Shown piece after piece: positions 3,921-25,607 of a stretch of 64,000 nt of DNA. How positions within the stretch are numbered: position 1 is the stretch's first letter; every line of letters starts with the position of its first letter. This DNA comes from a phage. The notes under the pieces were generated by a model. It was not told where the DNA came from, searched no databases, and worked only from the letters and a program-made list of their open reading frames with translations. The DNA lies in NCBI GenBank assembly GCA_025677605.1, contig GCA_025677605.1_4110.1, one strand, 5' to 3'. The position numbers were made by a program, and so were the translations under genes.

Positions 3921-3924
3921 ACTT

Positions 3925-12098: not shown

Positions 12099-12099
12099 A

Positions 12100-12270: not shown

Positions 12271-12321
12271 GGTATTATCCTCAATATTAGCGGCCTAAAT
12301 CAACCGCTAACGATGTTTTGA

Positions 12322-12591: not shown

Positions 12592-12671
12592 TATACTATC
12601 CTCTTAAGTTAATTTAATTTCTTTCCCCTATGCAGACACTATATCAAAGTATCTGCATAAAGTAAAGCTAA

Positions 12672-13016: not shown

Positions 13017-13096
13017 TTTTAGTTTCCTCAGTTGTTTTGATAAAATCTATTATGCCAGTACTATCAATCTATGTCAATAGTACTGTGATAATAATT

Positions 13097-13309: not shown

Positions 13310-13391
13310 TTTTTGTTTCCTCTTAGTTGTCTTGATAAAATCTATTATGCCAGTACTATCAAACTATGTCAATAGTACTGTGATAATATTT

Positions 13392-13535
13392 TTACTTACT
13401 TTTTGCTTTCTTTGCTGCTTCCACCTGGTCGGCCCACTCTTTACCCCATACTTGAGCATTATAGTGATACTGACAAAGAGCAACGCCCCGCTTCAAACCA
13501 GTAATAGATTTTTTACCACATTGACAAGTTTTCAT
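13392..13535 (-). CDS. hypothetical small Cys-containing protein (47 aa)
   Basis: hand-translated MKTCQCGKK...; promoter + hairpin upstream. Confidence 0.45.
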   Translation of the reverse strand: MKTCQCGKKSITGLKRGVALCQYHYNAQVWGKEWADQVEAAKKAKSK

Positions 13536-13622
13536 TTTAGTTTCCTCTTAGTGGGGAGAACCATTTTCTCCCCTTGATGTAATGTATTATACTTTATCTG
13601 ATTTACTTTGCAAGTACTTTTT

Positions 13623-13850
13623 TTAATTTAATTCATCCAGGCAAAGGATACGCTCAACGCCCAAATCAGTTAAACTAATAGACGGCACTTGATAGGTTTC
13701 AACGTATTCTACACTCGCCCACTGACCGAACTCATTCACCGCCCAGGTATTCATTGCAAAATGTAATTCCGCACCTTTCTTATTAGTAATTACAGCAACA
13801 GTAGAAGAATTGCCAGTAGTACCAGATACGCGAGTGATTACGATAGCCAT
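13623..13850 (-). CDS. hypothetical protein (75 aa)
   Basis: track ORF. Confidence 0.6.
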   Translation of the reverse strand: MAIVITRVSGTTGNSSTVAVITNKKGAELHFAMNTWAVNEFGQWASVEYVETYQVPSISLTDLGVERILCLDELN

Positions 13851-13920
13851 TGTTTTGATTCCTATTCAGTAGTTGATGTATGTATTATCGCAGTACTTAA
13901 AACTATTGTCAAACTATTTT

Positions 13921-14073
13921 TTAAAGTTTATCAATGATTGATGCCGTTTCATTGATAGTCTTGCCGTGTTTTGCACACGCGATAACTGCTTTAAATTCCT
14001 TTGATGACCAATCTTTTTTACTGCATACTGACATTACTTGTAAAGTGAAACAATCCAGTTCATAAGTATTCAT
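13921..14073 (-). CDS. hypothetical small protein (50 aa)
   Basis: hand-translated; TGAGGATAT RBS. Confidence 0.4.
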   Translation of the reverse strand: MNTYELDCFTLQVMSVCSKKDWSSKEFKAVIACAKHGKTINETASIIDKL

Positions 14074-14177
14074 CTTTATATCCTCAGTTAGTTAAGGTGT
14101 CTCGCCTTGATGAAATTAATTATACGCTAATCTCTTAATCGTGCAAGTACTTTTTATTAGTTTTTGCAAAATACTTT

Positions 14178-14269
14178 AAACGCCCGCAATCGCATTCTAA
14201 CGACCTTAACGCCACCAGCTAGGGCGATGCATCAGATAATCAGTTTAATGCGTTAGAATCGATTCTAGG
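14178..14269. repeat. conserved motif AAACGCCCGCAATCGCATTCTAACG with inverted partner CGTTAGAATCGATTCTAGG
   Basis: motif also at 9229-9253 and 19431-19456, each just distal to a terminator. Confidence 0.45.
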
Positions 14270-14300
14270 CGGTGCTGGGGGCATGGTAAACGATAAACAC

Positions 14301-14327
14301 AAAAAAGCCCACTGTTTAAGGTGGGCT
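14301..14327 (-). terminator. intrinsic terminator (AGCCCAC..GTGGGCT + U-run)
   Basis: inverted repeat with A6 on plus strand, after the 14349 stop; same design at 15031-15058. Confidence 0.55.
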
Positions 14328-14348
14328 AGTGATTCAGTACTTTAATTG

Positions 14349-14831
14349 TTATGCTTCAACTTTGCGATGAGCTTCGATCCATTCCTCGCGAGTCAATCCG
14401 CTTTCTTTGATAGCATCCAGTACTACGGCAATGCAGTTACCGCGTACTGGTACAGTGTATTCCTCGCCATTATCCAGAACTACCGGCACGCGTTCCTGAA
14501 TCCATTTTTTAGCTTTTACTTCTGGCTTGTCTTCCCCGTATTTCGCTGCCAGGGCTTTACGTGCCATTTCGGTTACTACTTCCAGATCAAGCCCAGCGAC
14601 GGCGGCGTTAATATCTTCAATCGTTTTCTGCAATTCAGCTTCGCGTGCTGCCTTCTCAGCTTCAAGTGCCGCCGCTTTATTAGCTTGTAGTTCTTTCGCT
14701 TCGCTGTACGCAATGTTAAAATTGTTGCGTACTGCTTTCATGGTATCGCTATCCAGTTCAGCCAGGATCTCAGCCGCTACGTTAGTTTCATTTGCTACCA
14801 GTGCTTTGATGAATGATTTTACATTAGCCAT
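14349..14831 (-). CDS. hypothetical Ala/Glu-rich protein (160 aa)
   Basis: track ORF 14349..14846 trimmed to ATG at 14829-14831 after TGAGGAAT. Confidence 0.6.
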   Translation of the reverse strand: MANVKSFIKALVANETNVAAEILAELDSDTMKAVRNNFNIAYSEAKELQANKAAALEAEKAAREAELQKTIEDINAAVAGLDLEVVTEMARKALAAKYGEDKPEVKAKKWIQERVPVVLDNGEEYTVPVRGNCIAVVLDAIKESGLTREEWIEAHRKVEA

Positions 14832-14887
14832 TATATAATTCCTCAATTAAAGTTTAGTTTACGTTTATTAGTGTATCAAAGTTTTCT

Positions 14888-14948
14888 TGACGTGTCCAGT
14901 TTTTCGTTCGACTTACTGGCGGTCTACTTAGTGTTCCCCGTCTTGATG
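14888..14948 (-). repeat. conserved leader element, degenerate copy C
   Basis: related to 7910-7972 and 17947-18021. Confidence 0.4.
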
Positions 14949-15030
14949 TAATACATTCTACGCTTTTCTTCGGTAATGTCAACTACTTTTTTAAAACTAT
15001 TTTCAAAGTATCTCAGTACTACACCACTAC

Positions 15031-15058
15031 AAAAAAAGCCCACTGTTTAAGGTGGGCT
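15031..15058 (-). terminator. intrinsic terminator (AGCCCAC..GTGGGCT + U-run)
   Basis: same inverted repeat as 14301-14327, downstream of 15076..15375. Confidence 0.55.
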
Positions 15059-15075
15059 ATTGATTCAGTACTAGA

Positions 15076-15375
15076 TTATAAACAGTTAATTACTCCTGTG
15101 TGCGTTACTTTCTCAGTATCCATAACCGTGACCGAACCGCGTTTTTTCTTCGCATCATAATAAATTGTTGTGCTACCTTTCGCATCTTCTTCATGGAACG
15201 GGCCATTTTTAAATGCTTCTGGCTGTAATTCCAGATCCTTTAAAACAATCTCGCCAGTACTTTCATCGGTCATTGCTACGGTGCACTGAATGAATTTATC
15301 ACCAGGTACATCTAACGACGCATTAACAGCGAAAGAGGAAACAGATAAAGCCAGGGCGATGATTGCTACTTTCAT
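15076..15375 (-). CDS. putative secreted protein (99 aa)
   Basis: N-terminal signal-peptide-like MKVAIIALALSVSSFAVNA. Confidence 0.6.
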   Translation of the reverse strand: MKVAIIALALSVSSFAVNASLDVPGDKFIQCTVAMTDESTGEIVLKDLELQPEAFKNGPFHEEDAKGSTTIYYDAKKKRGSVTVMDTEKVTHTGVINCL

Positions 15376-15460
15376 TTGATTATCCTTAGTTACCAGGGGA
15401 ACCGTTCCCCCCCTTGCTATGTAAAATATTATACAGTACTAAAAACTAATTGCAAGTACT

Positions 15461-15697
15461 TTATGATTTTTTATAAAACATTTCGGCAGTGATATTTTTA
15501 CCCGTTGGTTGTACTTTATCCAGGATTTTTTGATGCCCGGACCGTCCAAATGAATATGATCCGTAAACCGTAAACCAGTAGTTACCCTCAGTGTTTACAT
15601 GTACAGCACAATAGGGAACGCCCCGCGATTCATCACTAGTAAAGTGTGCTACCGTTCCCGTTACATTCGAAGACGTTGATTTGATTTGTTCGACCAT
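15461..15697 (-). CDS. hypothetical protein (78 aa)
   Basis: track ORF. Confidence 0.6.
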   Translation of the reverse strand: MVEQIKSTSSNVTGTVAHFTSDESRGVPYCAVHVNTEGNYWFTVYGSYSFGRSGHQKILDKVQPTGKNITAEMFYKKS

Positions 15698-15805
15698 TTT
15701 CTTATTCCTTAGTTACCAGGGGAACCGCTCCCCCTATGCAAAACATTATACGCGTTTAAAAACTATTAGCAAGTATTTTAATAAAAAGTATTTGAAAAAT
15801 AGTTC

Positions 15806-15934
15806 TTGACAACTGCATCCAATACTGGCATAATTACTACATAAAGACAAAACAGTCTCTAACCCACCGGGTGCATAGATCCGTCTATTAAATGATTCAG
15901 TACTGAAAAAAGAAAGGGGATCAATTGATCCCCT
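15806..15934 (+). ncRNA. candidate small plus-strand transcript (promoter TTGACA-17-CATAAT, conserved CTAACCCACCGGGTGCATAG element, hairpin at 15915-15934)
   Basis: plus-strand promoter in an otherwise minus-strand block; no ORF; ends at a hairpin + T-rich stretch. Confidence 0.3.
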
Positions 15935-15939
15935 CGTTG

Positions 15940-16161
15940 TTATTTTGTAAGGTATAAACAGAAGTCACCTTTATTTGCTACGCCGCCAGTGTAACGCGAT
16001 GAATAGTTAGAAACGTCCTGGACTTCTGCTATTACCAGTGTATCATCATTCAATTCGTCGCAGAAGCAAACGGCTGGATCTTTTACGCCGATATTGTCGG
16101 CATGTTCCCGCATAGATTTAACCAGTGCTTCAAGTTGGGAAAGGGTAGTAATGTTAGCCAT
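15940..16161 (-). CDS. hypothetical protein (73 aa)
   Basis: track ORF 15940..16191 trimmed to ATG at 16159-16161 (MANITTL). Confidence 0.55.
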   Translation of the reverse strand: MANITTLSQLEALVKSMREHADNIGVKDPAVCFCDELNDDTLVIAEVQDVSNYSSRYTGGVANKGDFCLYLTK

Positions 16162-16246
16162 TTTATTTTCCTCATTACCAGGGAGAACCATTTCTCCCCT
16201 CTATGTAAACCATTATACAGTACTAAAAACTAATTGCAAGTACTTT

Positions 16247-16450
16247 TTAATTTAATTGCTTAAAAACATACTCAAAGACACGACGCACATCATTGATCAT
16301 CGCCTGGCGGTTAGCAGGTAACGCATCAGGATCGCCACTATCCCAGGCATTGATAAAACTCCCCAAATCATGATAGATTTTATTCTGTAAGCCGATTAAC
16401 TGCAATTCTTTTTCTTCAAGCTCTTTGATACGTTCAATTAAATCACTCAT
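16247..16450 (-). CDS. hypothetical protein (67 aa)
   Basis: track ORF 16247..16486 trimmed to ATG at 16448-16450 (MSDLIERI). Confidence 0.55.
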   Translation of the reverse strand: MSDLIERIKELEEKELQLIGLQNKIYHDLGSFINAWDSGDPDALPANRQAMINDVRRVFEYVFKQLN

Positions 16451-16467
16451 TATATAATCCTTAGTAC

Positions 16468-16752
16468 TTAACTGTAAGATCCGCAACGGTCGCAGTAGTG
16501 CCCGTCCTCGTCATCGTCAACGAATTGACCGACGAAATGATCTACTTTCGCTTTCAGGTTATTATAATCGTTTTCTACTTCCTTTAAACGCTTCTGGTAG
16601 TATTCCAGTGCTTTAAGATATGCCGCATCAGCAGTTTTCTCCTGCATAGCTAAATTCATGCCACGCGTTTCATCGTACAGCCAAAAACCATCGGTGCACT
16701 GGCTAATAGATAATGACTTGCTTAGTACTGTATAGTTAATTACTTTGCTCAT
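16468..16752 (-). CDS. hypothetical protein (94 aa), C-terminal CDRC motif
   Basis: track ORF. Confidence 0.6.
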   Translation of the reverse strand: MSKVINYTVLSKSLSISQCTDGFWLYDETRGMNLAMQEKTADAAYLKALEYYQKRLKEVENDYNNLKAKVDHFVGQFVDDDEDGHYCDRCGSYS

Positions 16753-16837
16753 TAGATAATCCTCAGTAAAGGCGGGAACTATTCCCCGCCTCGATATAAA
16801 GTATTATACGTTAATCTAACTACAATGCAAGTACTTT

Positions 16838-17110
16838 TTAGTTTTTTAATTCTTTTACTGCATCAGGTGCGACAGAACCATCAATGTATTGAACATCGTT
16901 TTCAACTTCACGGGCGGCATCATTCAGCAGATCAAAATTAAATTCCATTTCTTCCAGATCATCAAAATCAGGCTCATAACCATTAATTGTTGAATAAGTC
17001 CAAGTACCTTTTTCATAAGTCACGACACTTACATCAGGGAAGAAATCTTGCACATGATCCATTGCATCCCGAACCAGTTGATGTGCAGTTGTGATATTTA
17101 AAGTTTTCAT
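16838..17110 (-). CDS. hypothetical acidic protein (90 aa)
   Basis: track ORF. Confidence 0.6.
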   Translation of the reverse strand: MKTLNITTAHQLVRDAMDHVQDFFPDVSVVTYEKGTWTYSTINGYEPDFDDLEEMEFNFDLLNDAAREVENDVQYIDGSVAPDAVKELKN

Positions 17111-17203
17111 TTTGTTACCCTTTTAGTGTGAGCGGGGAACCACTCCCCGCCTCGATATAAAGTATTATACGCTTTTAAACTTAGTATGCAAGTACTTTTT
17201 AAA

Positions 17204-17878
17204 TTAATATTCGATTGATTCTACTACGCCATCAATAACATTGAATTGATATTCGTTACCCTCAATCAGTGCCGTAATGTTTTCAGTAGTGAATTGATCC
17301 TCATATGCATTCTCTAAATCACGGTACAACTTGCGGGATAATTCACGAATAGTTTCAGTGAGTAGTTCCTCAAGCTCATTAACTAACGCTTCTTGTTTTG
17401 CGGTTAAATCAGTGTAAGCCGATTCAATGTACCCGCTTACAGTGTTTTCATGCGAGTAGTTGGAGTGAGAACGCTTTACACTCATTGCCAAATCATCTTC
17501 ATTCAGCAGGTGACGGATTGAGCGATACTTAGTTAATGCTCTAACCTTGCGTAAAAACTTCTCAGCGTCAACGTGGTCAGTACTAATTGATGCACCGTCA
17601 CCCTGCGACCAAAAACCACTGAATTGTATTTCAGCGTCATTAATGCCATATTCCGGTAGTACTGTTTCTTTATAGTATTCAATTTCACTTTCAGAAAAAT
17701 AATCGTCGTTTAAGTTTTTTTCACGTTCCCGAACCAGTTCGATAGCTGACGTTTGTTGTTCTGCGTTCAATTCAGAAAAATCCATAACGAAAGTAGTATT
17801 AGTGACAGTTTTCGCTTTGCAACCCTCATTCAATTCAGAAAAATCCATAACGAAAGTAGTAGTAGTGATAGTTTTCAT
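17204..17878 (-). CDS. hypothetical acidic protein (224 aa) with N-terminal tandem repeat
   Basis: two direct copies of TTTFVMDFSELN encoded by a duplicated segment of about 57 bp at 17770-17880. Confidence 0.6.
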   Translation of the reverse strand: MKTITTTTFVMDFSELNEGCKAKTVTNTTFVMDFSELNAEQQTSAIELVREREKNLNDDYFSESEIEYYKETVLPEYGINDAEIQFSGFWSQGDGASISTDHVDAEKFLRKVRALTKYRSIRHLLNEDDLAMSVKRSHSNYSHENTVSGYIESAYTDLTAKQEALVNELEELLTETIRELSRKLYRDLENAYEDQFTTENITALIEGNEYQFNVIDGVVESIEY

Positions 17879-17946
17879 TTTGTAACTCTCATTCAGTAGT
17901 TGATGTAAGTATTATACGCTTTTAAAAACAATTGTCAAACTATTTT

Positions 17947-18021
17947 ATCAGGGGAGTTTTTCGTGTGCCTTACTCCTGGGCTACTTAACGGGGAGTTACT
18001 TATTTCGTTCCCCGTCCTGAT
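17947..18021 (-). repeat. conserved leader/small-RNA-like element, copy B
   Basis: near-identical to 7910-7972. Confidence 0.5.
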
Positions 18022-18197
18022 GTAAAACATTATACGCCTTTAAACATAGTTTGCAAGTACTTTTTATCAAATAGTTTTCAGTACTGGCATTGTACTTAAT
18101 CACTTTACTATAGATACACTTCCGCACCCTATGGGCTATCGCCTTGTGTCCGGCTTGTAAGTATTATCTCACTAAGCCGGATAATGGTCAAGTACTT

Positions 18198-18464
18198 TTA
18201 TTCAAGTACTGCAATCTTTTTAGTACTGTACACGGTAACACGGTTTCCCTTGCGGTCGTGCTTTATTTCTACCACTCGACGCGATACACTATCAGGACTT
18301 TTTAACGCCGCTAACCAGTACTGAATTGATCGGGCTGTACTTTGCTTTACTACGGCCCAACGTTTACCCCTGGCTGATTGTACGCCCATATCTTTAAACG
18401 TTGCACCGTCAACCTTTGCCGCTTGCCGAGCTTGTTCACGCGTCGCAAAGTATATAATATTCAT
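18198..18464 (-). CDS. hypothetical protein (88 aa), paralog of 6384..6788
   Basis: track ORF 18198..18518 trimmed to ATG at 18462-18464 (MNIIYFATRE). Confidence 0.55.
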   Translation of the reverse strand: MNIIYFATREQARQAAKVDGATFKDMGVQSARGKRWAVVKQSTARSIQYWLAALKSPDSVSRRVVEIKHDRKGNRVTVYSTKKIAVLE

Positions 18465-18546
18465 GCTGTTACCCCTATCGTTGTTGTATAAAAGAAATCT
18501 ATTATAAAGTACTATCACCGTGCAATAGTACTTTTAATCTATTCTC

Positions 18547-18786
18547 TTACATGCCAACCATTGCAGCACGGATCGCAGTAGTGCTATACTTGAATCCGTC
18601 CGGTGTTTTATCTTGTCCAGTCTGTTCTAAAAATAGCATCATATGACGGGCCGCATCATTTCGATTAGTGTTAGCGGCAATAAAGTCCAGGGCCAACCGG
18701 TATAATGATTCATCGTTATTAATCCAAAGGCTTACATTCCATTGAGTTTTGTTTTTGTGACCTAAGAACATTTTTGATTTAGCCAT
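18547..18786 (-). CDS. hypothetical protein (79 aa)
   Basis: track ORF. Confidence 0.6.
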   Translation of the reverse strand: MAKSKMFLGHKNKTQWNVSLWINNDESLYRLALDFIAANTNRNDAARHMMLFLEQTGQDKTPDGFKYSTTAIRAAMVGM

Positions 18787-18879
18787 TTTTAAATCCTCTT
18801 AATTATAGTGGGGAACTATTCCCCACCGGATAGAAAGTATTATACATTAATCTAATTACTTTGCAAGTACTTTTTTAAC

Positions 18880-19242
18880 TTATTCGTAAATCTTGCCACT
18901 GTCAGCCCATACCAGGAAACGAGGCATATTATCCCATGCATCTTGTTTTAAGTTTAAGCCGTGCAATACTTCGGTACTTTCCATCCCAGGCACTGGTTTA
19001 CTATACACCGCAAATAGTTCGCCCATGTACTGATAAGCCATCGTTAAATCACTGGCAATCATCTTGTGGATCATCGCATCAAGCATCACAGTAGCGGCGT
19101 ATTGTTCACGCTTAAGCGGCAACATTGCAATCAATTCCCGATAAGCTGATATATGAATCTTTACAGTCTCAGCCGGAAGATCTTTCATCTCTTCGCGAAA
19201 GTTAACCAGGTTAGCAATGATTTTAGTGATTTGAGTCGCCAT
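18880..19242 (-). CDS. hypothetical protein (120 aa)
   Basis: track ORF. Confidence 0.6.
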   Translation of the reverse strand: MATQITKIIANLVNFREEMKDLPAETVKIHISAYRELIAMLPLKREQYAATVMLDAMIHKMIASDLTMAYQYMGELFAVYSKPVPGMESTEVLHGLNLKQDAWDNMPRFLVWADSGKIYE

Positions 19243-19534
19243 CGTTTTAATTCCTATTAAAGTGAGTTAGGAGCGTTTCCCCCGTCTCGATGTAAAACAT
19301 TATACGCCCTTAAACATAGTATGCAAGTACTTTCTACAAATACTTTTAAAATAGTTTTCTTTCTATATAGGAGTACTATCATTCAGTACTGAATCAATCC
19401 AGTGGTACAATTATTCAGTACTATACCCTTAAAACGGCCTCAATCGCGTTCTAACGCATTAATACACCTAAGCTATACATTTGCACCACTCCCAACAATC
19501 CAGGGCTTTACGGGCCGTTTAAACACCAGTACTG

Positions 19535-20044
19535 TTAAGAGTACTTTTTAAAATATTTTATTATTGTTTCCTTTGTAACTCCAAATTTTCTACCCAATGC
19601 AGTAGCACCATAAACGCGATCCCCTGGCTTATAATGTGTTATAATGTATTGTGTATCGTCGGCGGTCAAACGTGCCTTATCGTTATCATATCCCGTTAAA
19701 CGTGGTTTAACTAATCCAGAATCAAACGCATGTTTAACATTTTCGCTATTGGTTGCCCATTCCAACGCGGTGTAATGATTGTTCGCCTTTCCCTTTAAAT
19801 GATTAACTTGAACTATCTTATAGTGAGTTTTTGCAGCCCATGCGATTTGTTCCGCAGTAGGCGGTGATAGATAGTTATTAGCAACCAATCTATGAACAAA
19901 ATGATCCCCATCGTTTAACGATACTCTTTGATAACCTTTTTCGGTTATACGTGGTTTAAGATTGGTTGTAGTGCCAATCTTTCTAACATCCCCATACTCG
20001 CTAACTTCATATAAATTATTTTCTTTTAGTACCTTCCATTGCAT
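19535..20044 (-). CDS. HNH homing endonuclease (NUMOD4-like N-terminus, 169 aa)
   Basis: YEVSEYGDVRK N-terminal motif and GYQRVSL...HRLVA HNH-type core. Confidence 0.6.
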   Translation of the reverse strand: MQWKVLKENNLYEVSEYGDVRKIGTTTNLKPRITEKGYQRVSLNDGDHFVHRLVANNYLSPPTAEQIAWAAKTHYKIVQVNHLKGKANNHYTALEWATNSENVKHAFDSGLVKPRLTGYDNDKARLTADDTQYIITHYKPGDRVYGATALGRKFGVTKETIIKYFKKYS

Positions 20045-20584
20045 ACACGATCCCCTGATGTAACATTTATTTGATACTATTATATCATAAAAATATGTTC
20101 CATCTCATAAAATAGTACTTGCATTCTGTACGGCATAGCGTATAATTACTACATAAGCCGGAAACAAGGCACTAACCCACAGGGTGCCGAGATCCGCCCA
20201 AAATTCATATAATTTAAAAAGGATACACTCCCGCACCCTAGCAGGTCAAAGCACTTTCTCAGTACTGAATCATAGTACCATAGTACGCCCCAGGATGGCA
20301 AGCAAATTAATTAAAACTTTTTACACTTAGGCTATTGCTTTTATAATTCAGTACTGCTATAATTATTTCATCAAGTCGAGAAAGACTCTAGCCCACCGGG
20401 TGCATAGTTACGCCCAAAATTCAGTACTAGATTATTTTTAAAAATATTCATCCAGGCGGTTGACATACCCCGCTAAAACTGGGATAATGTTTCCAGATTC
20501 AGAAAAATCTAACTCCAGATACTGCGGGGAAACCATCCCCACGCGGTAGGGGAACTATTGGAAAAAACAAAATAAAAATTTTGA

Positions 20585-20765
20585 TTTAGCCGTCTATACA
20601 TCCAGACGTGTAACCATCTAGCCATCTAGCCGTCCAAACGTCTAGCAGTACAGCCATCTAGAAATCTAGCCATCTAGAAATCTAGCCATCCAGCCGTCTA
20701 GAGGGATAGCCATCTTTACTTCCAGACTTCTGGAGGGCTAGACATCTCTACGTCCAAAATCCACC
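20585..20765. repeat. iteron-like direct repeats (core ATCTAGCC / AGCCGTCTA) plus palindrome TCCAGACTTCTGGA
   Basis: at least 8 CTAG-containing repeat units inside the 1.7 kb ORF-free region. Confidence 0.6.
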
Positions 20766-21776
20766 CAGGGTTACTACGCCCAAAATCCGTCAGTACTATA
20801 CCATAGATCTATCTTTAAGAAGGGAGTATTCAGTACTGCCATCATAGTCCTCACTATGTTACCCTAGGAGGATGAAGACTATCATGTAGTACTGAATACT
20901 TTTAAGGGGAATATCATCACATTGCGTGATGCATTATATATTAGATTAATATCAGTACTGCTACCATTCTGTTAATAACAGTACTGTTTATATTACGAAA
21001 AAAGAGGTTGTCAAAGATGAACCACTGCATAGGAGGATTCAATCTCTTCTGTACTGTCTCACGACAGGAGGGTTAAGGCTCTGAATTGTTTGCGGCAATT
21101 CATCACTCTATGTAGAACATTATACAGTACTGAATCATAATGTCAATAGATTTCTTCCATTATTCAGTACTGAAAACATATCTTCTGTATCTCTTCAAAA
21201 CTCATTATATCCCACTAATCCTATATGTCCCAATGTAAATTTCAACTTTCGAAGATCCAACTTTTATTTCATAGGTACTCCAAAATTTTTACGATCCAGA
21301 TTTACGATGGAGTACTAACCAACTTTTTGCTGGAGCCTCAAGGGGTATTCGGAATTTTCCCCAATGGGTATTCGGGATTTTTGACGAAGGGTAAATTGAA
21401 CTTTTTTGAATAGGTGATTGGGAGTTTTCAGTACTGGTCATTCCGTGATTACTTTTGATTGGAAATGATTTGTTTTGCAATTGTTCAGTACTGTAAAATT
21501 ATGTAAATTTTGGGCGACTTCATTTGCCTACTTAGTGGGATATCAGTACTGAATCATTCCTGCACTCTAGTACTCAATACTCTTCACTACAATGATTATA
21601 AATGATTACTTAAATGTTTATATATGATTACTTATGACTACCTATGATTACGGGGTTTAGCCTGGGGAGAATCCTAGTGATCGCATTTGTCCAGGCTGAA
21701 TTTTAACATATGCAACATATGTTAAAGCCTGTATAATGCTTGCACTACGGAGCTTCCCCTAGCTATATGTGTTTAA

Positions 21777-21974
21777 TTACTTCCTATATATAAGCATTAA
21801 GATATAGTAGTACTGATTGTACTGTACATTCTCTAGAACAGGAGAAGGGTCTATTGCTATATTAGTACATTTATTAAATTCATATCGAGTCATTGGTAGA
21901 GGGATTAGAGCGTTAATCCATACTTGTTCATTCTCTTTGAGTTTACTTATATAGAATTCTTTATGGTCATTCAT
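21777..21974 (-). CDS. small paralog family A member (65 aa; MNDHKEFY...LIYRK)
   Basis: track ORF trimmed to family-consistent ATG; N-terminal K[ED][FY]Y and C-terminal Y..L.LI[YF] shared with array. Confidence 0.55.
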   Translation of the reverse strand: MNDHKEFYISKLKENEQVWINALIPLPMTRYEFNKCTNIAIDPSPVLENVQYNQYYYILMLIYRK

Positions 21975-21975
21975 A

Positions 21976-22167
21976 TTAGTGTCTGTATATAAGTAATAGT
22001 AAGAATACGTACTGCACCTGTTCATCTTTAGTATTGAGTACTGTACGTATTGCGTCCTTAAACAAGAATATAGAACTTGGGTCATGGGAATTTAAAGGGA
22101 TTACGGGGACGGCATCTTTGTAGTTCTCTTTAACAAATTGTTTATAGTATTCTTTATAATTATCCAT
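21976..22167 (-). CDS. small paralog family A member (63 aa)
   Basis: MDNYKEYY...LIYRH. Confidence 0.6.
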   Translation of the reverse strand: MDNYKEYYKQFVKENYKDAVPVIPLNSHDPSSIFLFKDAIRTVLNTKDEQVQYVFLLLLIYRH

Positions 22168-22360
22168 AGATATATACTAGCAACATTAGGTTAGAGTATA
22201 GTGCTTTAGTGTCATCTTGTTCTAGAGCTTCAATTGAGTTCGTTGTAGCTTTCCTAAAGCCCATTTTTGCGTATGCACTTTTTGGATTAACGGGGGCGGC
22301 GGCTTCGCACCAGATTCTTTCGGTGCTTGATAGTTTACTCATATAGAATTCTTTATACAT
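22160..22360 (-). CDS. small paralog family A member (66 aa)
   Basis: MYKEFY...LVYIYG; 8-nt overlap with neighbour. Confidence 0.6.
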   Translation of the reverse strand: MYKEFYMSKLSSTERIWCEAAAPVNPKSAYAKMGFRKATTNSIEALEQDDTKALYSNLMLLVYIYG

Positions 22361-22361
22361 A

Positions 22362-22544
22362 TTAGTACCTGAATATTAGCATTGTTATGTAGTACAGCAT
22401 ATATGGATTGTCATCGTATATTAGGGTGTACTTAGTACATTGTTGGAACATTATCTTTGCGTGATCTTTTATTCCTATTGGTTCTGTTGGTACAAGGTGT
22501 TGGAGATGCATTGGGAGATGATCTTTATAAAATTCTTTATACAT
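22362..22544 (-). CDS. small paralog family A member (60 aa)
   Basis: MYKEFY...LIFRY. Confidence 0.6.
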   Translation of the reverse strand: MYKEFYKDHLPMHLQHLVPTEPIGIKDHAKIMFQQCTKYTLIYDDNPYMLYYITMLIFRY

Positions 22545-22552
22545 ATTAGTCC

Positions 22553-22741
22553 TTAGTACTGGAACGCGAGATACAGAGTGTGGTACAGTTGCACTTGAGA
22601 ATTGTTTTCATTAAGTACTTGTTCAGTACATGTGCGGAAGTAATCAGCTTCGTATATACAGTTAATATCGCGAGGTTCATCTTCTAATAGATTGCCTTGT
22701 AGAAACTTTGGTAGTTCTTTTATGTAGTATTCTTTATGCAT
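22553..22741 (-). CDS. small paralog family A member (62 aa)
   Basis: MHKEYY...LAFQY. Confidence 0.6.
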   Translation of the reverse strand: MHKEYYIKELPKFLQGNLLEDEPRDINCIYEADYFRTCTEQVLNENNSQVQLYHTLYLAFQY

Positions 22742-22750
22742 ATGATTTCC

Positions 22751-22939
22751 TTAGTACACGAATGCGAGGTACAGGGTGTGGTACAGTACTCGATGATAGC
22801 TATCATAATCTTGTATACATGCTTTAGTGCACATAGTAAAGTACTTTTTATCGTTTTGTGCATTGATACCGCGAGGTTTATCTAATAGATTAGTTATGAG
22901 GTACATTGGGAAATATTTTGTGTAGTATTCTTTGTGCAT
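22751..22939 (-). CDS. small paralog family A member (62 aa)
   Basis: MHKEYY...LAFVY. Confidence 0.6.
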   Translation of the reverse strand: MHKEYYTKYFPMYLITNLLDKPRGINAQNDKKYFTMCTKACIQDYDSYHRVLYHTLYLAFVY

Positions 22940-22940
22940 A

Positions 22941-23123
22941 TTAGTACCTGTATATAAGTGTTAGTACATTGTACAAGTTATAGATATCATCTTCATTTAT
23001 TGCAGATTCTGTTTGATATCGGTAGAATATAGTTTGGCTTTTATCTTTGAAATCTACAGGTTTTTGGGGAATAAGTTTTTGGAGATCTATTGTAAGTTTA
23101 CTTACGTAGTATTCTTTATACAT
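22941..23123 (-). CDS. small paralog family A member (60 aa)
   Basis: track ORF 22941..23186 trimmed to MYKEYY start; ends LIYRY. Confidence 0.55.
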   Translation of the reverse strand: MYKEYYVSKLTIDLQKLIPQKPVDFKDKSQTIFYRYQTESAINEDDIYNLYNVLTLIYRY

Positions 23124-23787
23124 AGTTTGTAATATAAGTAATGAGGTGATGAATTTTCTTATCAGTACTGATAAGTTCCTGTACATGTTTTGTTAGTTTG
23201 TACGCGTTTTTGTACAGTACAGGATTATCGATTACAGTACTGTACATGAATAGATCTTCTTCCTGTAGTTCTTTGTGTTCTAGTTCTTTGAGGAATTCTA
23301 CAATTGATTTAGTTTCTTCTGTACGTTGCTGTTGGAAGAAATGCATGTTATCGTGTATTTCTTCTGAACCCATACTGTATATGCCACCCATTTGGAATTG
23401 TGCTGTATTGACATCGTGGGAGGTGTTACAATTCCCGAAGAAGTATGTATTCCCGAAGTATAGCATTAAAGTGCACGGGGTATTATCCAACTGCATATGG
23501 ATGATGAAGGATGCGTTCTTTAGTACCTTCATGCTCGTATTAGTACTCAATACTTTTAAATCAGTATTATAGATATTCATATAATGAACAGCTATATTAT
23601 TTTTCTTCATGTACAATTCAAGGTTCTTTGATACGTTAACTCCATTTGTACTGGTTTTTTTACTTTTCTTTAGGTTCTTTAGTACATTAGGGTGATAAGT
23701 ATATGCATTAGTGGTAGATTCAGCCTGGATTGATTGCAGGTACTTGAAGTGCTGTAGGTATCGTTTACTTTGTGGATTGAGTTTCAT
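23116..23787 (-). CDS. hypothetical protein (223 aa) embedded in the small-paralog array
   Basis: track ORF; AAGGAG RBS; not a family member. Confidence 0.6.
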   Translation of the reverse strand: MKLNPQSKRYLQHFKYLQSIQAESTTNAYTYHPNVLKNLKKSKKTSTNGVNVSKNLELYMKKNNIAVHYMNIYNTDLKVLSTNTSMKVLKNASFIIHMQLDNTPCTLMLYFGNTYFFGNCNTSHDVNTAQFQMGGIYSMGSEEIHDNMHFFQQQRTEETKSIVEFLKELEHKELQEEDLFMYSTVIDNPVLYKNAYKLTKHVQELISTDKKIHHLITYITNYV

Positions 23788-23815
23788 TTTAGTCTCCTTA
23801 AATTGCTTATACTGC

Positions 23816-23995
23816 TTATACTGTTACAAGCGAGATTATTTCTCTGTATGGGTTATTTTTTGTCAGGACGTGATGAATGCAGCTATTGAGATTAATAGTT
23901 TTAGTACTTTTTGTTCCTATGTTGTAGTACTTCACGAAGGTGTCGTACATGAAACGATCCTTAGTACTGAGATTATCGGTGTAGTACTCTAGCAT
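23816..23995 (-). CDS. small paralog family B member (59 aa; MLEYY...)
   Basis: hand-translated; below track length cut-off. Confidence 0.45.
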   Translation of the reverse strand: MLEYYTDNLSTKDRFMYDTFVKYYNIGTKSTKTINLNSCIHHVLTKNNPYREIISLVTV

Positions 23996-24005
23996 AGTTT
24001 ATTCC

Positions 24006-24185
24006 TTATATAGAGATTAGTTTCAGTACTTCTCTGTACGTGTACTTTTCGTTTTGTGCTTCTACTGTACATGATAGCAGGTATCGTTTTTTATCTCTTT
24101 TGTTCCCGACTGTGTAGTACCTTTGGAATTGATTATAGATGTATCTATCTTTGTTCTGGAGTTTATAGATATAGAATTCTTGCAT
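24006..24185 (-). CDS. small paralog family B member (59 aa; MQEFY...EVLKLISI)
   Basis: hand-translated. Confidence 0.45.
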   Translation of the reverse strand: MQEFYIYKLQNKDRYIYNQFQRYYTVGNKRDKKRYLLSCTVEAQNEKYTYREVLKLISI

Positions 24186-24193
24186 AGTGTACC

Positions 24194-24373
24194 TTAGATA
24201 GAAATTAGTTTCAGTACTTCATTATATGTGAACATTTCGTCCTGTGCCAATTTAGTACAATTCAGGAGTAATTTTCTTTGTTTTCTTTGCGAACTACAAT
24301 GATAGCTCATTGAGAAGTAATTGAAGCCGTATCTATCTTCTGGGTAAATTACGCTTAGGTAGTATTCTAGCAT
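24194..24373 (-). CDS. small paralog family B member (59 aa; MLEYY...EVLKLISI)
   Basis: hand-translated. Confidence 0.45.
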   Translation of the reverse strand: MLEYYLSVIYPEDRYGFNYFSMSYHCSSQRKQRKLLLNCTKLAQDEMFTYNEVLKLISI

Positions 24374-24381
24374 TGTATTCT

Positions 24382-24567
24382 CTACATTTCAATAAGTTTA
24401 AGTACTGCTCTGTACGTGTACTTAGTTGTTAGTACTTCTTTTATAGCAGTACAGAAGTAATGTTGTTTGTCTCTTATACTGCCGCGTTTGTAGTACCATA
24501 CATGGGAGTTGTGGCTGTACTTGTCTCTGTCGGATAGTTGTTGGTAATAGTAGCTTATATGATTCAT
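24382..24567 (-). CDS. small paralog family B member (61 aa)
   Basis: track ORF; ends AVLKLIEM. Confidence 0.55.
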   Translation of the reverse strand: MNHISYYYQQLSDRDKYSHNSHVWYYKRGSIRDKQHYFCTAIKEVLTTKYTYRAVLKLIEM

Positions 24568-24776
24568 TGTAATGTAATTAGCCTTACTATATTAAAGTAC
24601 TCGGTCCCTGTTGCACCTTGTAGAATATTACGCACGACATGTTTGTGGTGCAGGATGATTGCTGAAGGTGCGGTTCTTTTAAGTTTTTTAAAAGTACTGA
24701 ATTCTTGTTTAAGTATGAACTGTACATCTTTAGGGAGAATATCTATGTAGTACTGATGAATGTTTGTAATTTTCAT
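24564..24776 (-). CDS. small paralog array member (70 aa)
   Basis: track ORF; 4-nt overlap with neighbour. Confidence 0.55.
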   Translation of the reverse strand: MKITNIHQYYIDILPKDVQFILKQEFSTFKKLKRTAPSAIILHHKHVVRNILQGATGTEYFNIVRLITLQ

Positions 24777-24787
24777 ATAGTACCTTT

Positions 24788-24979
24788 TTAGAACTTAAAG
24801 ATGAGGTACATGATAGATAGGTACTTAGTTGAAGTAAATGGTTGTTCTATTGCATAACGTGTCTCCAACCTGAAATCGTAATTATAAAAGGGACTATTCT
24901 TTCTCATAGGTTCTTGAGGGAATGAGTCCCTGTATTGTTCGTGTAGTTTACTACAGTAGAAATCTTTATGATTATTCAT
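24788..24979 (-). CDS. small paralog family A member (63 aa)
   Basis: MNNHKDFY...LIFKF. Confidence 0.6.
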   Translation of the reverse strand: MNNHKDFYCSKLHEQYRDSFPQEPMRKNSPFYNYDFRLETRYAIEQPFTSTKYLSIMYLIFKF

Positions 24980-25181
24980 AGAAGTATATTAGTCCGATTA
25001 AACTTGAGTACTGCATATTTTTGTTATTGCATTCAATAGCTTCTAGAGTACTACGTATACAATTATTAAAGCAATTCCTTGTGTTGGGTGTGTCTATACT
25101 TACAGGTGGTACACTCCTTAGAAACATTTGTTCTTCGTTGCTGAGGTATTTGGTGTAGAATTCTTTATGTTCAGTATTCAT
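24972..25181 (-). CDS. small paralog family A member (69 aa)
   Basis: MNTEHKEFY...LIYFYE. Confidence 0.6.
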   Translation of the reverse strand: MNTEHKEFYTKYLSNEEQMFLRSVPPVSIDTPNTRNCFNNCIRSTLEAIECNNKNMQYSSLIGLIYFYE

Positions 25182-25182
25182 A

Positions 25183-25383
25183 TTAGTACTCCAATAGTAG
25201 TGTTAAGATGAAATAGTACTGCATACTTTCGTTACCTTCTATTGCATTCCAGATGAGGTTATTCCTGTTTGAGTTCAGGAGTCCTGGTATGCGTTTAGCA
25301 TTTTTCAGTACTGTTTTTTGGTTCTTCATTGCATCTTGTAGCCCAGGGTGCAATGCATTGATGTAGTACGGGTTAATGTTCAT
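25183..25383 (-). CDS. small paralog array member (66 aa)
   Basis: MNINPYY...LLLEY. Confidence 0.55.
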   Translation of the reverse strand: MNINPYYINALHPGLQDAMKNQKTVLKNAKRIPGLLNSNRNNLIWNAIEGNESMQYYFILTLLLEY

Positions 25384-25607
25384 ATAGCCACTAGTACTAA
25401 GATGTTTAAAAATTGTTTACGGGTATCCCCTAATAGTGTATTGTGTACAATGCTCACAGTAAGGGTATTCAGTGCACTACCAAGCATAAGGTTACACCCT
25501 GTGCTCTTATGATTTTTTAGTTCAATTAGCCACGATTGGTCAGAGAGAACCTTTGCGTACTCTAGTTCATTTAGTTCATTGATGTAGTACTTTAGAGCAT
25601 ATGGCAT
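25380..25607 (-). CDS. small paralog array member (75 aa), first gene of leftward operon
   Basis: AAGGAG RBS; promoter TTGACA-17-TACTAT immediately upstream. Confidence 0.55.
   Translation of the reverse strand: MPYALKYYINELNELEYAKVLSDQSWLIELKNHKSTGCNLMLGSALNTLTVSIVHNTLLGDTRKQFLNILVLVAI

Follow-up and report, generated by a model that had tools for sequence, protein, structure and literature searches.

Organization of the Non-coding Region

Positions 20045-21776 of the window (the whole 64-kb stretch of phage DNA analysed) contain a tandem array of short repeats, promoters on both strands, several further repeats and hairpins, and the predicted physical end of the genome. The region is repeat-dense and is conserved at 80-92% across 35 Asteriusvirus (121Q/PBECO4-like) jumbo coliphages. 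It had been described in an earlier note as a 1.7-kb region free of ORFs, and this description holds. The longest ORFs are of 62-63 aa (21225..21413, plus strand; 21289..21480, minus strand); neither is convincingly conserved as coding sequence, and both were rejected on account of 15- and 8-nt deletions inside them in relatives. Equivalent gaps of 1.9-2.0 kb with no annotated genes are present in A4, 121Q and G17. A micro-ORF of 19 aa (21018-21077) is doubtful as a coding sequence: its frame is lost in EJP2, where the nucleotides are kept. Scans of the region for tRNAs and Rfam families yielded nothing except a chance miRNA match (E=0.6), and no Fur boxes were found in 20045-21776.

The left edge is formed by a gene that has no counterpart in relatives and is an insertion; alignment to relatives begins only at 20137.

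19535..20044, minus strand: HNH homing-endonuclease gene, 169 aa (Pfam NUMOD4, E=4.7e-7; PHROG 59 HNH endonuclease, E=8.6e-27)

The Predicted Genome End

The physical end has been mapped in relatives that are 80-93% identical to the present phage, and its position here follows from homology to three of them. The G17 record has an exact 20,668-bp direct terminal repeat (DTR) at both ends, the right end of which maps to 21532; the PhageTerm DTR of Sharanji is likewise 20,668 bp. The DTR of fEgEco12 is 20,993 bp as determined by PhageTerm and restriction digests (PMC13070987), and the one annotated in vB_Ec-M-J is 21,525 bp; the records of both phages begin at the nucleotide identical to the G17-mapped end, i.e., 21532|21533. 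As the mapped ends of relatives fall inside the region, the suggestion in the earlier note of a packaging site is supported, and 20045-21776 very probably contains the DTR end. Homology places at 21532|21533 the terminase cut that would create the right end, and the region would then consist of the last 1,488 bp of a DTR of ~21 kb and 244 bp of unique DNA.

21446..21472, plus strand: three TGATT(AC) repeats spaced by 10 bp and lying 60-86 bp internal to the cut, detected by repeat search; candidate terminase sites
21514..21521, minus strand: GAAGTCGC (GCGACTTC on the plus strand), 11 nt from the end; occurs once in 64 kb
21532..21533, no strand: right DTR boundary; by homology, the predicted terminase cut and physical end of the genome (GCCTACT|TAGTGG)
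21592..21651, plus strand: five (A)TGATTAC-like repeats with spacings of 10/22/10/10 bp, located in unique DNA 60-119 bp beyond the cut

Conservation around the cut is consistent with a recognition sequence. The arrangement GACTTC-N11-cut-TAGTGGNATAT is conserved, whereas the preceding 90 bp diverge between relatives. GAAGTC is located at an identical offset from the physical end in vB_Ec-M-J, fEgEco12, G17, Serratia phage BF, XbC2 and CBB, and five Rak2-like genera thus have it at a distance of 11 nt; Muenster has the variant AAAGTC (AAAGTCGC). The three repeats inside the cut may serve as terminase recognition sites, and the five outside it are strongly conserved in seven phages. The earlier note had counted five copies of ATGATTAC among the latter; three are exact (21602, 21624 and 21644) and the other two have one mismatch. 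Thus the repeats are conserved in relatives and a terminus signal is present at the locus, the two findings on which the earlier note had made its proposal depend.

The DTR is predicted to span 285-21532. Its left boundary, 284|285, is derived from the alignment offset to vB_Ec-M-J and from the motif CTA|AG, which is present at both DTR boundaries; a search for this boundary by homology to G17 gave no alignment for 1-416.

The Period-8 Array and Its Match to MetJ Operators

20524..20587, plus strand: leader conserved in eight Asteriusviruses; includes the motif GGTAGGGGAACTATTGG and a GGGG/CCCC hairpin, and abuts the array with an A/T-rich tract of 27 bp (20561-20587)
20588..20755, no strand: period-8 array of 21 octamers (AGCCGTCT ATACATCC AGACGTGT AACCATCT ...), 16 of which pass the metbox threshold

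The short direct repeats noted earlier at 20585-20765 are real, but are better described as a single tandem array: the ATCTAGCC repeats form 21 contiguous octamers in a strict period of 8 over 168 bp. Tandem Repeats Finder (TRF) reports periods of 8, 16, 32 and 40 for the array, and a repeat search finds 14 copies spaced by 8 nt. The tandem pair of CTAGCCATCTAGAAAT and the palindrome TCCAGACTTCTGGA, which had also been listed there, both lie within it. Indels in the array between relatives are whole multiples of 8; the number of boxes varies freely, and the array itself persists. A motif of the leader type, GGGGAACTAATGGAAAA, is also found upstream of the array in Serratia phage BF. The period-8 register and the match to MetJ operators, which were absent from the first reading, are the most informative feature of the region.

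The octamers were scored as metboxes with the matrix and thresholds of Augustus and Spicer (2011; PMC3228920), in which the consensus is AGACGTCT, a unit must reach at least one quarter of the consensus score, and a site must reach at least the full consensus, 12.58 bits. Sixteen of the 20 in-register octamers exceed the published box threshold, with a total of 130 bits, and uninterrupted runs of seven boxes (56 bits) and six boxes (46 bits) are present. In a positive control of 5.9 kb of E. coli DNA, only the metJ/metB (31 bits) and metF (25 bits) operators were found. The maximum in the shuffled 64-kb window was 19.6 bits, so that both runs are far beyond chance.

Several further results point to the same matrix. 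In base frequencies, 173 boxes taken from 12 phages and contigs correlate with natural metboxes at r=0.92 (0.97 when symmetrised), whereas the remaining seven registers give r of at most 0.02. Among the seven relatives, all 20 of the variant orthologous boxes stay above threshold, compared with 71% of random single substitutions, and the changes concentrate at box positions 5 and 8, which are the least informative. One deviation is clear: C occupies position 3 in 46% of phage boxes, compared with 10% of natural boxes. Many boxes are therefore one-sided, and the ligand could be a different protein with a similar 8-bp preference.

Like natural MetJ operators, the array consists of contiguous 8-bp units with no spacer, and MetJ is encoded by the host species, E. 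coli. Natural operators are short runs at the promoters of methionine genes; here, 21 units lie in non-coding phage DNA, and no methionine genes are found near the array. From these sequence comparisons, it is probable that the array binds MetJ in vivo.

Promoters Converging on the Array

The array is flanked on both sides by strong host-type promoters that point at it: no fewer than five conserved ones of the sigma-70 type, distributed over the two strands. This sustains in part the earlier idea of a regulatory hub.

20120..20147, plus strand: P+1, TTGCAT-16-TATAAT after AATAGTACT; points to the array and the DNA end
20335..20363, plus strand: P+2, TTGCTT-17-TATAAT with CAGTACTG in the spacer; points to the array and the DNA end
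20460..20488, plus strand: P+3, TTGACA-17-GATAAT, TG-extended, 11/12 consensus matches; points to the array
21119..21146, minus strand: P-1, perfect TTGACA-16-TATAAT (12/12 consensus) with AGTACTG abutting the -10; invariant in relatives
21204..21233, minus strand: P-2, TTGGGA-18-TATAAT, with a conserved -10; 299-328 bp from the DNA end and facing inward

Both plus-strand promoters that had been proposed earlier are recovered. The one placed at 20110-20140 corresponds to P+1, in which the -10 and the downstream ATTACTACATA are invariant in eight phages and for which relatives have TTGACT-17-TATAAT. The AAAAGTACTTGCA promoter class, to which P+1 belongs, has 14 minus-strand copies in the DTR and no other copy on the plus strand. 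The one placed at 20461-20490 corresponds to P+3; its hexamers are invariant in eight phages and its spacer is scrambled. Transcription from P+3 is predicted to start near 20495, 93 nt upstream of the array, and an equivalent promoter in CBB is ~96 bp from its array. The starts predicted for P+1, P+2, P-1 and P-2 are at about 20155, 20370, 21112 and 21197, respectively. In P+2, CAGTACTG(C)TATAAT is conserved in eight phages, and the P+2 block is the only part that still matches the Klebsiella phages RaK2, K64-1 and Muenster; in Muenster it lies ~1.16-1.3 kb from the end, a distance matching that seen here.

On the opposite side, P-1 is the rightmost of 16 early-promoter core copies in the window and faces inward to the array from 386-413 bp inside the DNA end. 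Inward promoters are also located 294-322 bp from the end in CBB and 269-297 bp from the end in Serratia phage BF.

Other Repeats and Hairpins

20166..20207, plus strand: 42-bp module, copy 1 (..CCCACAGGGTGCC..CGCCCAAAATTCA), 81% identical to copy 2
20220..20239, minus strand: terminator-like hairpin with a T-run after it, in a position to halt leftward transcripts
20382..20423, plus strand: 42-bp module, copy 2 (AGCCCACCGGGTGCATAGTTACGCCCAAAATTCAGTACT), invariant across eight phages
20755..20797, plus strand: partial third copy of the module (CCAAAATCCACCCAGGGTTACTACGCCCAAAATCCGTCAGTACT), detected by repeat search; conserved
20915..20931, no strand: hairpin CATCACATTGCGTGATG; in most relatives an inverted Chi pair (CCACCAGC-ACAA-GCTGGTGG)
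21054..21067, no strand: hairpin CTGTC-TCAC-GACAG, conserved in 8/8 phages; lies inside the doubtful micro-ORF
21336..21381, plus strand: 23-bp tandem repeat, two copies (GGGTATTCGGAATTTT...); the second is missing in most relatives
21659..21725, no strand: hairpin AGCCTGG...CCAGGCT, conserved, followed by the palindrome TTAACATATGCAACATATGTTAA

The remaining repeats reported earlier fared unequally. The two copies of GGGTATTCGG are present (21343 and 21366) and belong to the 23-bp tandem. CCCACCGGGTGC, described as occurring in copies, is exact only once, but is part of the 42-bp module, which is present twice. The palindromic TTCAGTACTGAA, for which many copies had been reported, is also exact only once in the region (21163), although its 8-bp core CAGTACTG occurs there ten times and the window contains 56 copies of this core compared with 0.96 expected. 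As a sigma-70 -10 element the core was rejected: it forms part of the spacer, or of the sequence context upstream, in two classes of early promoter. Many of its copies are also found without promoter context. At the terminator-like hairpin, the block AAAAAGGATACACTCCCGCACCCTAGCAGGT is nearly invariant in eight phages. The hairpin at 21659..21725 may act as a stop for rightward transcripts or may mark the 3' end of the paralog operon.

Distribution of Metbox-type Arrays

Arrays of the metbox type are present in 96 phage records, drawn from Demerecviridae, Autographiviridae and the Rak2-like jumbo phages; in T5-like, T7-like and other jumbo phages they number 9-28 boxes. No such arrays were found in 5,426 E. 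coli genomes and 72,556 plasmids. MetJ is confined to Enterobacterales, Vibrionales, Aeromonadales, Pasteurellales and Alteromonadales, and the hosts of 95 of the 96 records belong to the first three of these orders. The exception is Xanthomonas phage XbC2, which carries a 14-box array and has a host outside the MetJ orders.

Wherever a terminal-repeat end has been mapped, in three phage families, the array lies 0.04-0.95 kb from it: 763-916 bp in fEgEco12 and vB_Ec-M-J, 770-897 bp in G17, 685-804 bp in CBB, 770-841 bp from the end of the long terminal repeat (LTR) in T5-like PR1 and 38-109 bp in PGT2. This position may be no more than a consequence of where the genome tolerates non-coding DNA. 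An arrangement like that of the iss region of T5 (see below) is seen in PR1, Pontus and AhSzq-1, with a DnaA box 88-114 bp away from the array. The array is absent from T5 itself and from Klebsiella phage Muenster, which indicates that a phage with a long DTR can do without it; Fur-like boxes occupy the matching position in both. A pattern scan of IMG/VR (period-8 TCYAG) returned genuine heterogeneous arrays (L028, L029, L068 and L069) mixed with plain period-8 microsatellites. Many of these matches were at contig ends, where assemblies break at tandem repeats in any case, and they were not counted for proximity to termini.

Comparison with Known Systems

The closest likeness in organization is to Repeat Region 3 of T5, which holds the injection stop signal (iss) and forms the inner end of the terminal repeat on the left (Davison, bioRxiv 10.1101/866236; NC_005859). 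Both regions are untranslated, 1.2-1.7 kb long and located at the inner end of a long DTR, where they cross the junction and extend into unique DNA (270 bp in T5 and 244 bp here). Both are packed with palindromes and with repeats in direct and inverted orientation, show better conservation than the small ORFs nearby, and have an HNH endonuclease inserted near the repeats. In T5-like PR1, Pontus and AhSzq-1, the equivalent of Repeat Region 3 includes a metbox-type array. In contrast, T5 itself has no sequence homology to the region described here, which contains neither DnaA boxes nor DRD repeats and thus lacks the paired DnaA boxes in inverted repeats IRD'/IRC' that characterize iss. The T5 iss is a cis stop of DNA transfer that is released by pre-early A1/A2; for the present phage group, two-step transfer is a proposal only, and Pfam annotation of the DTR proteins reveals no DNA-transfer function.

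The E. coli MetJ operators (metB/metJ and metF; PMC3228920) resemble the array in their contiguous 8-bp units, in the consensus and the variants tolerated, and in a similar degeneracy. They differ in size, with four boxes at each control operator and 16-21 in the phage array, and in context, as the phage array lies near a genome end in non-coding DNA between convergent promoters. C at position 3 is also much commoner in phage boxes.

Other systems share single features with the locus. The SRL and SRR arrays of T7 are short degenerate repeats just inside the terminal repeats, in non-coding DNA by the DTR boundary, and T7 has host-type promoters that lie a few hundred bp from the end and point inward, as here; they differ in their CCTAAAG-type heptamers of irregular spacing and in a DTR of 160 bp, and we know of no host protein that binds them. 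In ribbon-helix-helix (RHH) centromere-like arrays (TP228 parH-ParG and the omega heptads), contiguous short repeats are each bound by one RHH dimer, but the binder is encoded by the element beside its own gene, whereas the unit here matches a host repressor. IHF at lambda cosB is a case of a host protein near a terminase cut, as proposed here, although it involves a single bending site tens of bp from the cut compared with ~20 sites 0.8 kb away.

In the literature searched, which included phage-resistance screens (metJ), nothing relevant linked MetJ boxes to phage termini, and no earlier description was found of a DNA end, early promoters and ~20 tandem metbox-like sites in combination. If the array does act on MetJ, this would be, to our knowledge, the first case of virulent phages recruiting or soaking up a metabolic repressor by means of an operator super-array.

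Possible Roles of the Array

Taken as a whole, the region is somewhat more plausibly than otherwise an untranslated DTR tip in which a host protein, MetJ, provides a barrier or pause near the DNA end. On DNA entry, pre-existing SAM-loaded host MetJ would polymerise cooperatively along the array with one dimer per box, and ~16-20 dimers would build a large nucleoprotein block 0.78-0.94 kb from the end. In what is the weakest step of the proposal, this block would separate the terminal 0.8 kb and the cut site from the early transcription units. It might stall enzymes that track along DNA, namely, RNA polymerase from the convergent promoters, the DNA-transfer process and end-processing enzymes. 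By analogy, its function could correspond to that of the injection-stop region of T5; in T5-like phages, the arrays in that region adjoin DnaA boxes. RecBCD displaces most bound proteins, which weakens the version in which the block is a barrier to exonucleases. If the array does bind MetJ, the chances that it serves as a barrier or pause in cis are about even, and titration of MetJ in trans is a distinctly less probable use of it. No transcriptome for this genus was found in the literature searched.

A host-repressor array in the stop region, as seen in several T5-like genera and in the equivalent place in jumbo phages, makes testable the long-standing question of how T5-type DNA transfer is stopped at a cis site, and the array may bear on how jumbo phages control incoming DNA. 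A broader and speculative extension, which we consider unlikely as it stands, is that phages with long DTRs carry interchangeable host-repressor cassettes ~0.7-0.9 kb inside the repeat end that act as an injection stop or pause, and that Rak2-like phages enter in two steps. The repressors would be abundant host proteins whose DNA binding requires a bound metabolite; already present in the cell, they would coat the DNA as it enters. The cassettes seen here and in PR1, Pontus, AhSzq-1, CBB and BF would consist of MetJ-SAM boxes, those of Muenster and T5 of Fur-like boxes, and those of T5-like phages of DnaA boxes. If so, genome entry or early transcription would be conditional on host physiology, and the 21-kb repeat would be the first-step DNA of a T5-like two-step delivery. 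Asteriusviruses are candidates for therapy, and their true ends, early promoters and possible dependence on host factors bear on annotation, engineering and the prediction of resistance.

A different use of MetJ binding is that the array is a decoy, or sponge, which titrates host MetJ in trans and derepresses methionine/SAM synthesis and transport. All the evidence for the metbox identity of the array applies equally to this explanation. Each genome has two repeats with ~20 boxes apiece, and replication would raise this number further, so that the short operators of the host would be out-competed. Arrays of 9-28 boxes are far above the 4-box E. coli control operators, placement in the DTR doubles the dose, and a box number that varies freely while the array persists is as expected of a sponge. 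A decoy leaves unexplained, however, the position of the arrays 0.04-0.95 kb from mapped repeat ends in three families, and the adjacency of DnaA boxes in T5-like phages. The Fur-like boxes at the equivalent spot in Muenster and T5 further suggest that the identity of the repressor is secondary. Also, T5-like phages degrade host DNA early, so that derepressing host genes would be pointless for them. Overall, the decoy is judged unlikely.

The array might instead be of the terminase pac type, with the small terminase or a packaging protein binding the octamers and positioning the cut at 21532. This is improbable, although the distance to the cut is near-constant (~0.68-0.95 kb) across Rak2-like genera and the terminal repeats of T7 are flanked by short repeat arrays. 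The 8-bp unit is common to T5-like, T7-like and jumbo phages, which are too distant for a shared sequence-specific packaging protein to be likely, and Muenster keeps the terminal motif without an array. Sequences next to the cut are better candidates for recognition: GAAGTC, 11 nt away, and the TGATTAC repeats, which are phased.

Slightly more improbable still is a phage-encoded RHH protein or other repeat binder, either a regulator or a centromere-like factor; the likeness to metboxes would then have arisen by convergence. RHH proteins, ParG and omega among them, form coats on arrays of short-period repeats, the C bias at box position 3 is unlike natural metboxes, and most phage proteins here are without known function. 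On the other hand, a search of 71 proteins from the DTR and the paralog block detected neither an RHH domain nor one of the MetJ, Arc or ParG type, and 50,697 phage records include no homologue of MetJ. In phage families that are unrelated, the unit follows the metbox matrix of the host (r=0.92-0.97), and the host range is limited to the MetJ orders with the single exception given above.

That the region mainly encodes non-coding RNAs transcribed from P+1, P+2, P+3 or P-1, with the array acting as RNA, is very improbable: conserved promoters without a downstream ORF and conserved hairpins would fit it, but Rfam gives only the chance match, no compensatory changes were seen by eye in the variable stretches, the array has no self-complementarity beyond its palindromic unit, and the exact 8-bp register and metbox-matrix match are accounted for at the DNA level.

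The replication origin suggested in the earlier note, with the octamers as iterons and the 27-bp A/T-rich tract as an unwinding element, is just as improbable and lacks support, since the array and tract, with promoters close by, are accompanied by no DnaA boxes between 13969 and 26813 (nor by TTWTNCACA in 20045-21776) and no adjoining initiator-like gene, the octamer unit is common to unrelated phages, and the T5 origins lie near the genome centre and not in the corresponding region. GC skew, which the earlier note had proposed as a check, has its cumulative minimum and zero crossing at ~21.2-21.6 kb. It was rejected as an origin signal: the sign changes at the DTR boundary, which is traced to a compositionally odd minus-strand paralog block and not to a change of gene strand, and elsewhere in the 64 kb the skew follows the gene strand.

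The Genome End in the ORF-Free Region

The window is Asteriusvirus-type jumbo coliphage DNA (121Q/PBECO4-like): positions 20137–22300 show a 93.6% match to Escherichia phage A4 and matches of 82–88% to 36 further 121Q/PBECO4-like records, and when the search is made more sensitive, at least 80% of 20045–21776 is covered by 35 records. The latter region had been described in an earlier note as ORF-free, and this holds: the longest ORF is at most 63 aa, and relatives carry 15- and 8-nt deletions within such ORFs. Gaps of 1.9–2.0 kb without an annotated gene lie at the equivalent place in A4, 121Q and G17. The genes on both sides are on the minus strand. The left neighbour, an HNH homing endonuclease gene (NUMOD4; 19535–20044), is an insertion bordering the repeat region, without counterpart in relatives; in T5, an HNH gene is likewise inserted, between two LTR repeat regions. 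We class the region with the T5-type terminal repeat regions, its key element being a host-operator super-array.

In genus records of 366–386 kb, the region sits about 20 kb inside one end. In G17, an exact copy of the initial 20,668 bp closes the record; the repeat terminates in ...CTGCCTACT, after which the left copy continues with TAGTGGCATATCAGTACTG. Long direct terminal repeats (DTRs) in this genus are already published, including those of 20,993 bp in fEgEco12, called by PhageTerm and confirmed by restriction digest (PMC13070987). Both fEgEco12 and vB_Ec-M-J (annotated DTR, 21,525 bp) begin at the nucleotide identical to the G17 junction. The DTR is 20,668 bp in Sharanji by PhageTerm, and 22,456 bp in CBB as inferred from doubled read depth, in agreement with the genome size determined by PFGE. 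The homologous junction in the window falls between TTTGCCTACT and TAGTGGGATATCAGTACTG (21532/21533), so that, by sequence homology, the region carries the DTR end and comprises 1,488 bp of DTR and 244 bp of unique DNA. At the left DTR boundary, G17 and vB_Ec-M-J read GAAGTCGCTA(A)/AGG; alignment offset and this motif place the window boundary at 284/285, giving a predicted DTR of 21,248 bp.

Alignment of eight Asteriusviruses indicates that 30 bp at the cut site are conserved and that the 90 bp before them differ between two subgroups. In Asteriusvirus, Serratia BF, XbC2 and CBB, GAAGTC is located at a distance of 11 nt from the end, with an AAAGTC variant in Klebsiella phage Muenster; the 8-mer form of GAAGTC occurs once in the window (21514–21521). 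TGATTAC repeats with approximately 10-bp spacing lie on either side of the cut (21446–21472 and 21592–21651) and are candidate terminase recognition sites. The layout is that of T5 Repeat Region 3, whose 1.2 kb lie mainly within the left terminal repeat, extend 270 bp into unique DNA and contain the injection stop signal (iss).

A Tandem Array Resembling the MetJ Operator

The repeats listed in the earlier note are present in the region, with some counts corrected. Three of the five claimed copies of ATGATTAC are exact and the other two are near copies only; TTCAGTACTGAA, thought to occur many times, has one exact copy, although its core CAGTACTG is found ten times in the region, partly as promoter cores, and 56 times in the window (about one expected). 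The CCCACCGGGTGC element turns out to belong to a 42-bp module, which is present twice in full and once in part. The ATCTAGCC/AGCCGTCTA direct repeats form one tandem array with a strict 8-bp period, which, read in register, gives 21 octamers at 20588–20755 (AGCCGTCT, AGACGTGT, AAACGTCT, AGACATCT and others).

The E. coli methionine repressor MetJ binds contiguous 8-bp boxes; the array units have the length of this operator unit and fit the MetJ consensus AGACGTCT. With the matrix and thresholds of Augustus and Spicer (2011; PMC3228920), 16 of 20 in-register octamers score above threshold, including unbroken runs of seven (56 bits) and six boxes (46 bits), for a total of 130 bits if single weak boxes are allowed. 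Elsewhere in the 64 kb, the same scan gives nothing above the site threshold. The maximum for shuffled windows is 19.6 bits, and the positive control, the E. coli metJBLF locus, yields exactly two sites, upstream of metB (31 bits) and metF (25 bits).

Across 173 boxes taken from 12 phages and contigs, base frequencies are correlated with those of natural metboxes (r = 0.92, or 0.97 when symmetrised; r ≤ 0.02 in all other registers); the chief deviation is at position 3, where 46% of boxes have C in place of A. Among the eight Asteriusviruses, the degenerate boxes keep their order and length differences are multiples of 8. Variant orthologous boxes are above threshold in 20 of 20 cases, compared with 71% expected under random single changes, and substitutions are concentrated at positions 5 and 8. 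By every sequence criterion, the array reads as a MetJ operator many times over.

BLAST searches with the window array or an Aeromonas phage array retrieve 79–96 phage records. Carriers are all Asteriusviruses, other Rak2-like jumbo phages (CBB, GAP32, XbC2, Serratia BF and Erwinia phages), several T5-like genera (Providencia PR1 and PSTCR5, Vibrio Thalassavirus, pVp-1 and JSF10, Aeromonas AhSzq-1), the T7-like PGT2 and phiKT, and the 80-kb Vibrio phage vB_VorS-PVo5; scored arrays contain 9–28 boxes each. The array is absent from the 5,426 complete E. coli genomes and 72,556 plasmids searched. For 95 of the 96 records, the host belongs to Enterobacterales, Vibrionales or Aeromonadales, the exception being Xanthomonas phage XbC2, and MetJ is confined to these three orders, Pasteurellales and Alteromonadales. 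As no phage record searched encodes a MetJ homologue and none of the 71 proteins of the DTR and adjacent paralog block has an RHH-type domain, any MetJ-family protein binding the array would be that of the host. In the literature searched, neither this non-coding region nor MetJ boxes of any phage are described.

Array Position and Fur-Like Sites

Distance of the array from the genome end
Window: 777–944 bp
fEgEco12 and vB_Ec-M-J: 763–916 bp
G17: 770–897 bp
CBB: 685–804 bp
Serratia BF: 673–800 bp from the record start, which opens with the conserved terminal motif
XbC2: 648–775 bp from the record start, which opens with the conserved terminal motif
T5-like PR1: 770–841 bp from the annotated LTR end
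PGT2: 38–109 bp

In PR1, Pontus and AhSzq-1, a DnaA box lies 88–114 bp beyond the array, and in Pontus T5-type DRD repeats lie on its other side; these flanks place the array of the T5-like phages within the stretch that corresponds to the T5 iss region. A metbox array is lacking in T5 itself, whose iss region has at this position three Fur-box-like hits (L007, the T5 sequence, 854–913, i.e., record 9653–9712), defined as 19-mers with 14–16 of 19 matches to GATAATGATAATCATTATC; 0.08 hits with at least 14/19 matches are expected. Similarly, Muenster (PhageTerm DTR) has no metbox array despite the conserved terminal motif, and its terminal non-coding DNA (L072) contains eight Fur-like hits compared with 0.23 expected, at 787–830 (the first, in bp from the end), 1073–1097, 1306 and 2422. 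MetJ and Fur sites thus seem to substitute for one another at this position in two unrelated phage families, suggesting that recruitment of some abundant, cooperative host DNA-binding protein outweighs which one is recruited. The T5 iss paper mentions neither MetJ nor Fur (Davison, bioRxiv 10.1101/866236).

The first 20 nt of PGT2 (TCCAACACAAATGAGGTCGCG; L011, the PGT2 record, 1–130) resemble the jumbo terminus AGTAGGCAAATGAAGTCGCC (window 21512–21532), and in PGT2 the metbox array follows within 40 bp; this likeness could be a shared terminal module or coincidence.

Promoters and a Possible Role at DNA Entry

A consensus scan and the eight-phage alignment predict five promoters with conserved hexamers in the region:
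20120–20147, plus strand, P+1, facing the array and end
20335–20363, plus strand, P+2, facing the array and end
20460–20488, plus strand, P+3, facing the array and end; hexamers invariant, spacer variable
21119–21146, minus strand, P-1, perfect TTGACA-16-TATAAT, facing inward
21204–21233, minus strand, P-2, facing inward

These putative host-type promoters are convergent, P-1 and P-2 being 300–415 bp from the end. The AGTACTG-TATAAT early-promoter core occurs 16 times, P-1 being the rightmost copy. A second class, AAAAGTACTTGCA, is represented in the DTR by 14 copies on the minus strand, and on the plus strand by P+1 alone. In CBB and Serratia BF, too, an inward promoter lies approximately 270–320 bp from the end; CBB additionally has one that faces outward, approximately 96 bp from its array.

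We propose that host MetJ–SAM would coat the array soon after DNA entry. An early role is favoured because one or two arrays would then meet the whole MetJ pool, whereas MetJ would be limiting late. The main alternative, titration of MetJ resulting in derepressed methionine and SAM metabolism, accounts for the large box number, but leaves unexplained the terminal position, the DnaA neighbours and the swap with Fur-like boxes. In the weakest step of the coating proposal, the coat, in analogy with the T5 iss, might form a cis-acting barrier or pause that separates the terminal 0.8 kb from the early genes. Every DTR gene is directed away from the region, which is compatible with either T7-like entry from the region end or T5-like entry from the far end.

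Other Features of the Window

The plus-strand micro-ORF at 21018–21077 (19 aa, with a GAGG ribosome-binding site) is kept in seven of eight phages with an in-frame indel; EJP2 has lost the frame and retains the nucleotides, including the hairpin CTGTC-TCAC-GACAG. As judged from this pattern, the conserved entity is probably a DNA or RNA element.

Chi (GCTGGTGG) occurs 11 times in the window compared with 0.56 expected, always on the minus strand and never on the plus strand (1648, 1871, 3773, 5691, 8040, 9033, 9301, 14212, 38572, 50245 and 59599); eight copies are in the DTR, and the pattern recurs in G17. In this orientation the sites would, following the textbook rule, act on RecBCD that enters from the left end of the genome. 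In most relatives, an inverted Chi pair, CCACCAGC-ACAA-GCTGGTGG, forms a GC-rich hairpin between the end and the array, approximately 580–600 bp from the right end (20064–20083 in G17, L003; 588–607 and 578–597 in two other relatives, L071 and L005). The window (20915–20931) and A4 retain the hairpin, with Chi in neither arm.

At 21777–25607, approximately 17 small tandem minus-strand genes (59–102 aa; seven in PHROG 11711) show an excess of G over C on the plus strand, opposite to all other minus-strand blocks in the window, so that GC skew switches at the DTR boundary. Pfam matches among the roughly 55 small DTR proteins (285–19400) are confined to one protein each for a ParE-like toxin domain (E = 6e-11), DUF7249 and DUF1033. 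A 63-bp tandem repeat at 17766–17895 (2.1 copies, 91% identical) overlaps the start of a 224-aa minus-strand ORF (17204..17878). AGTACT is present in 273 copies in the 64 kb, compared with roughly 22 expected by our own base-composition estimate, in two early-promoter classes, in terminator stems of plus-strand genes at 26–38 kb and also within coding sequence.
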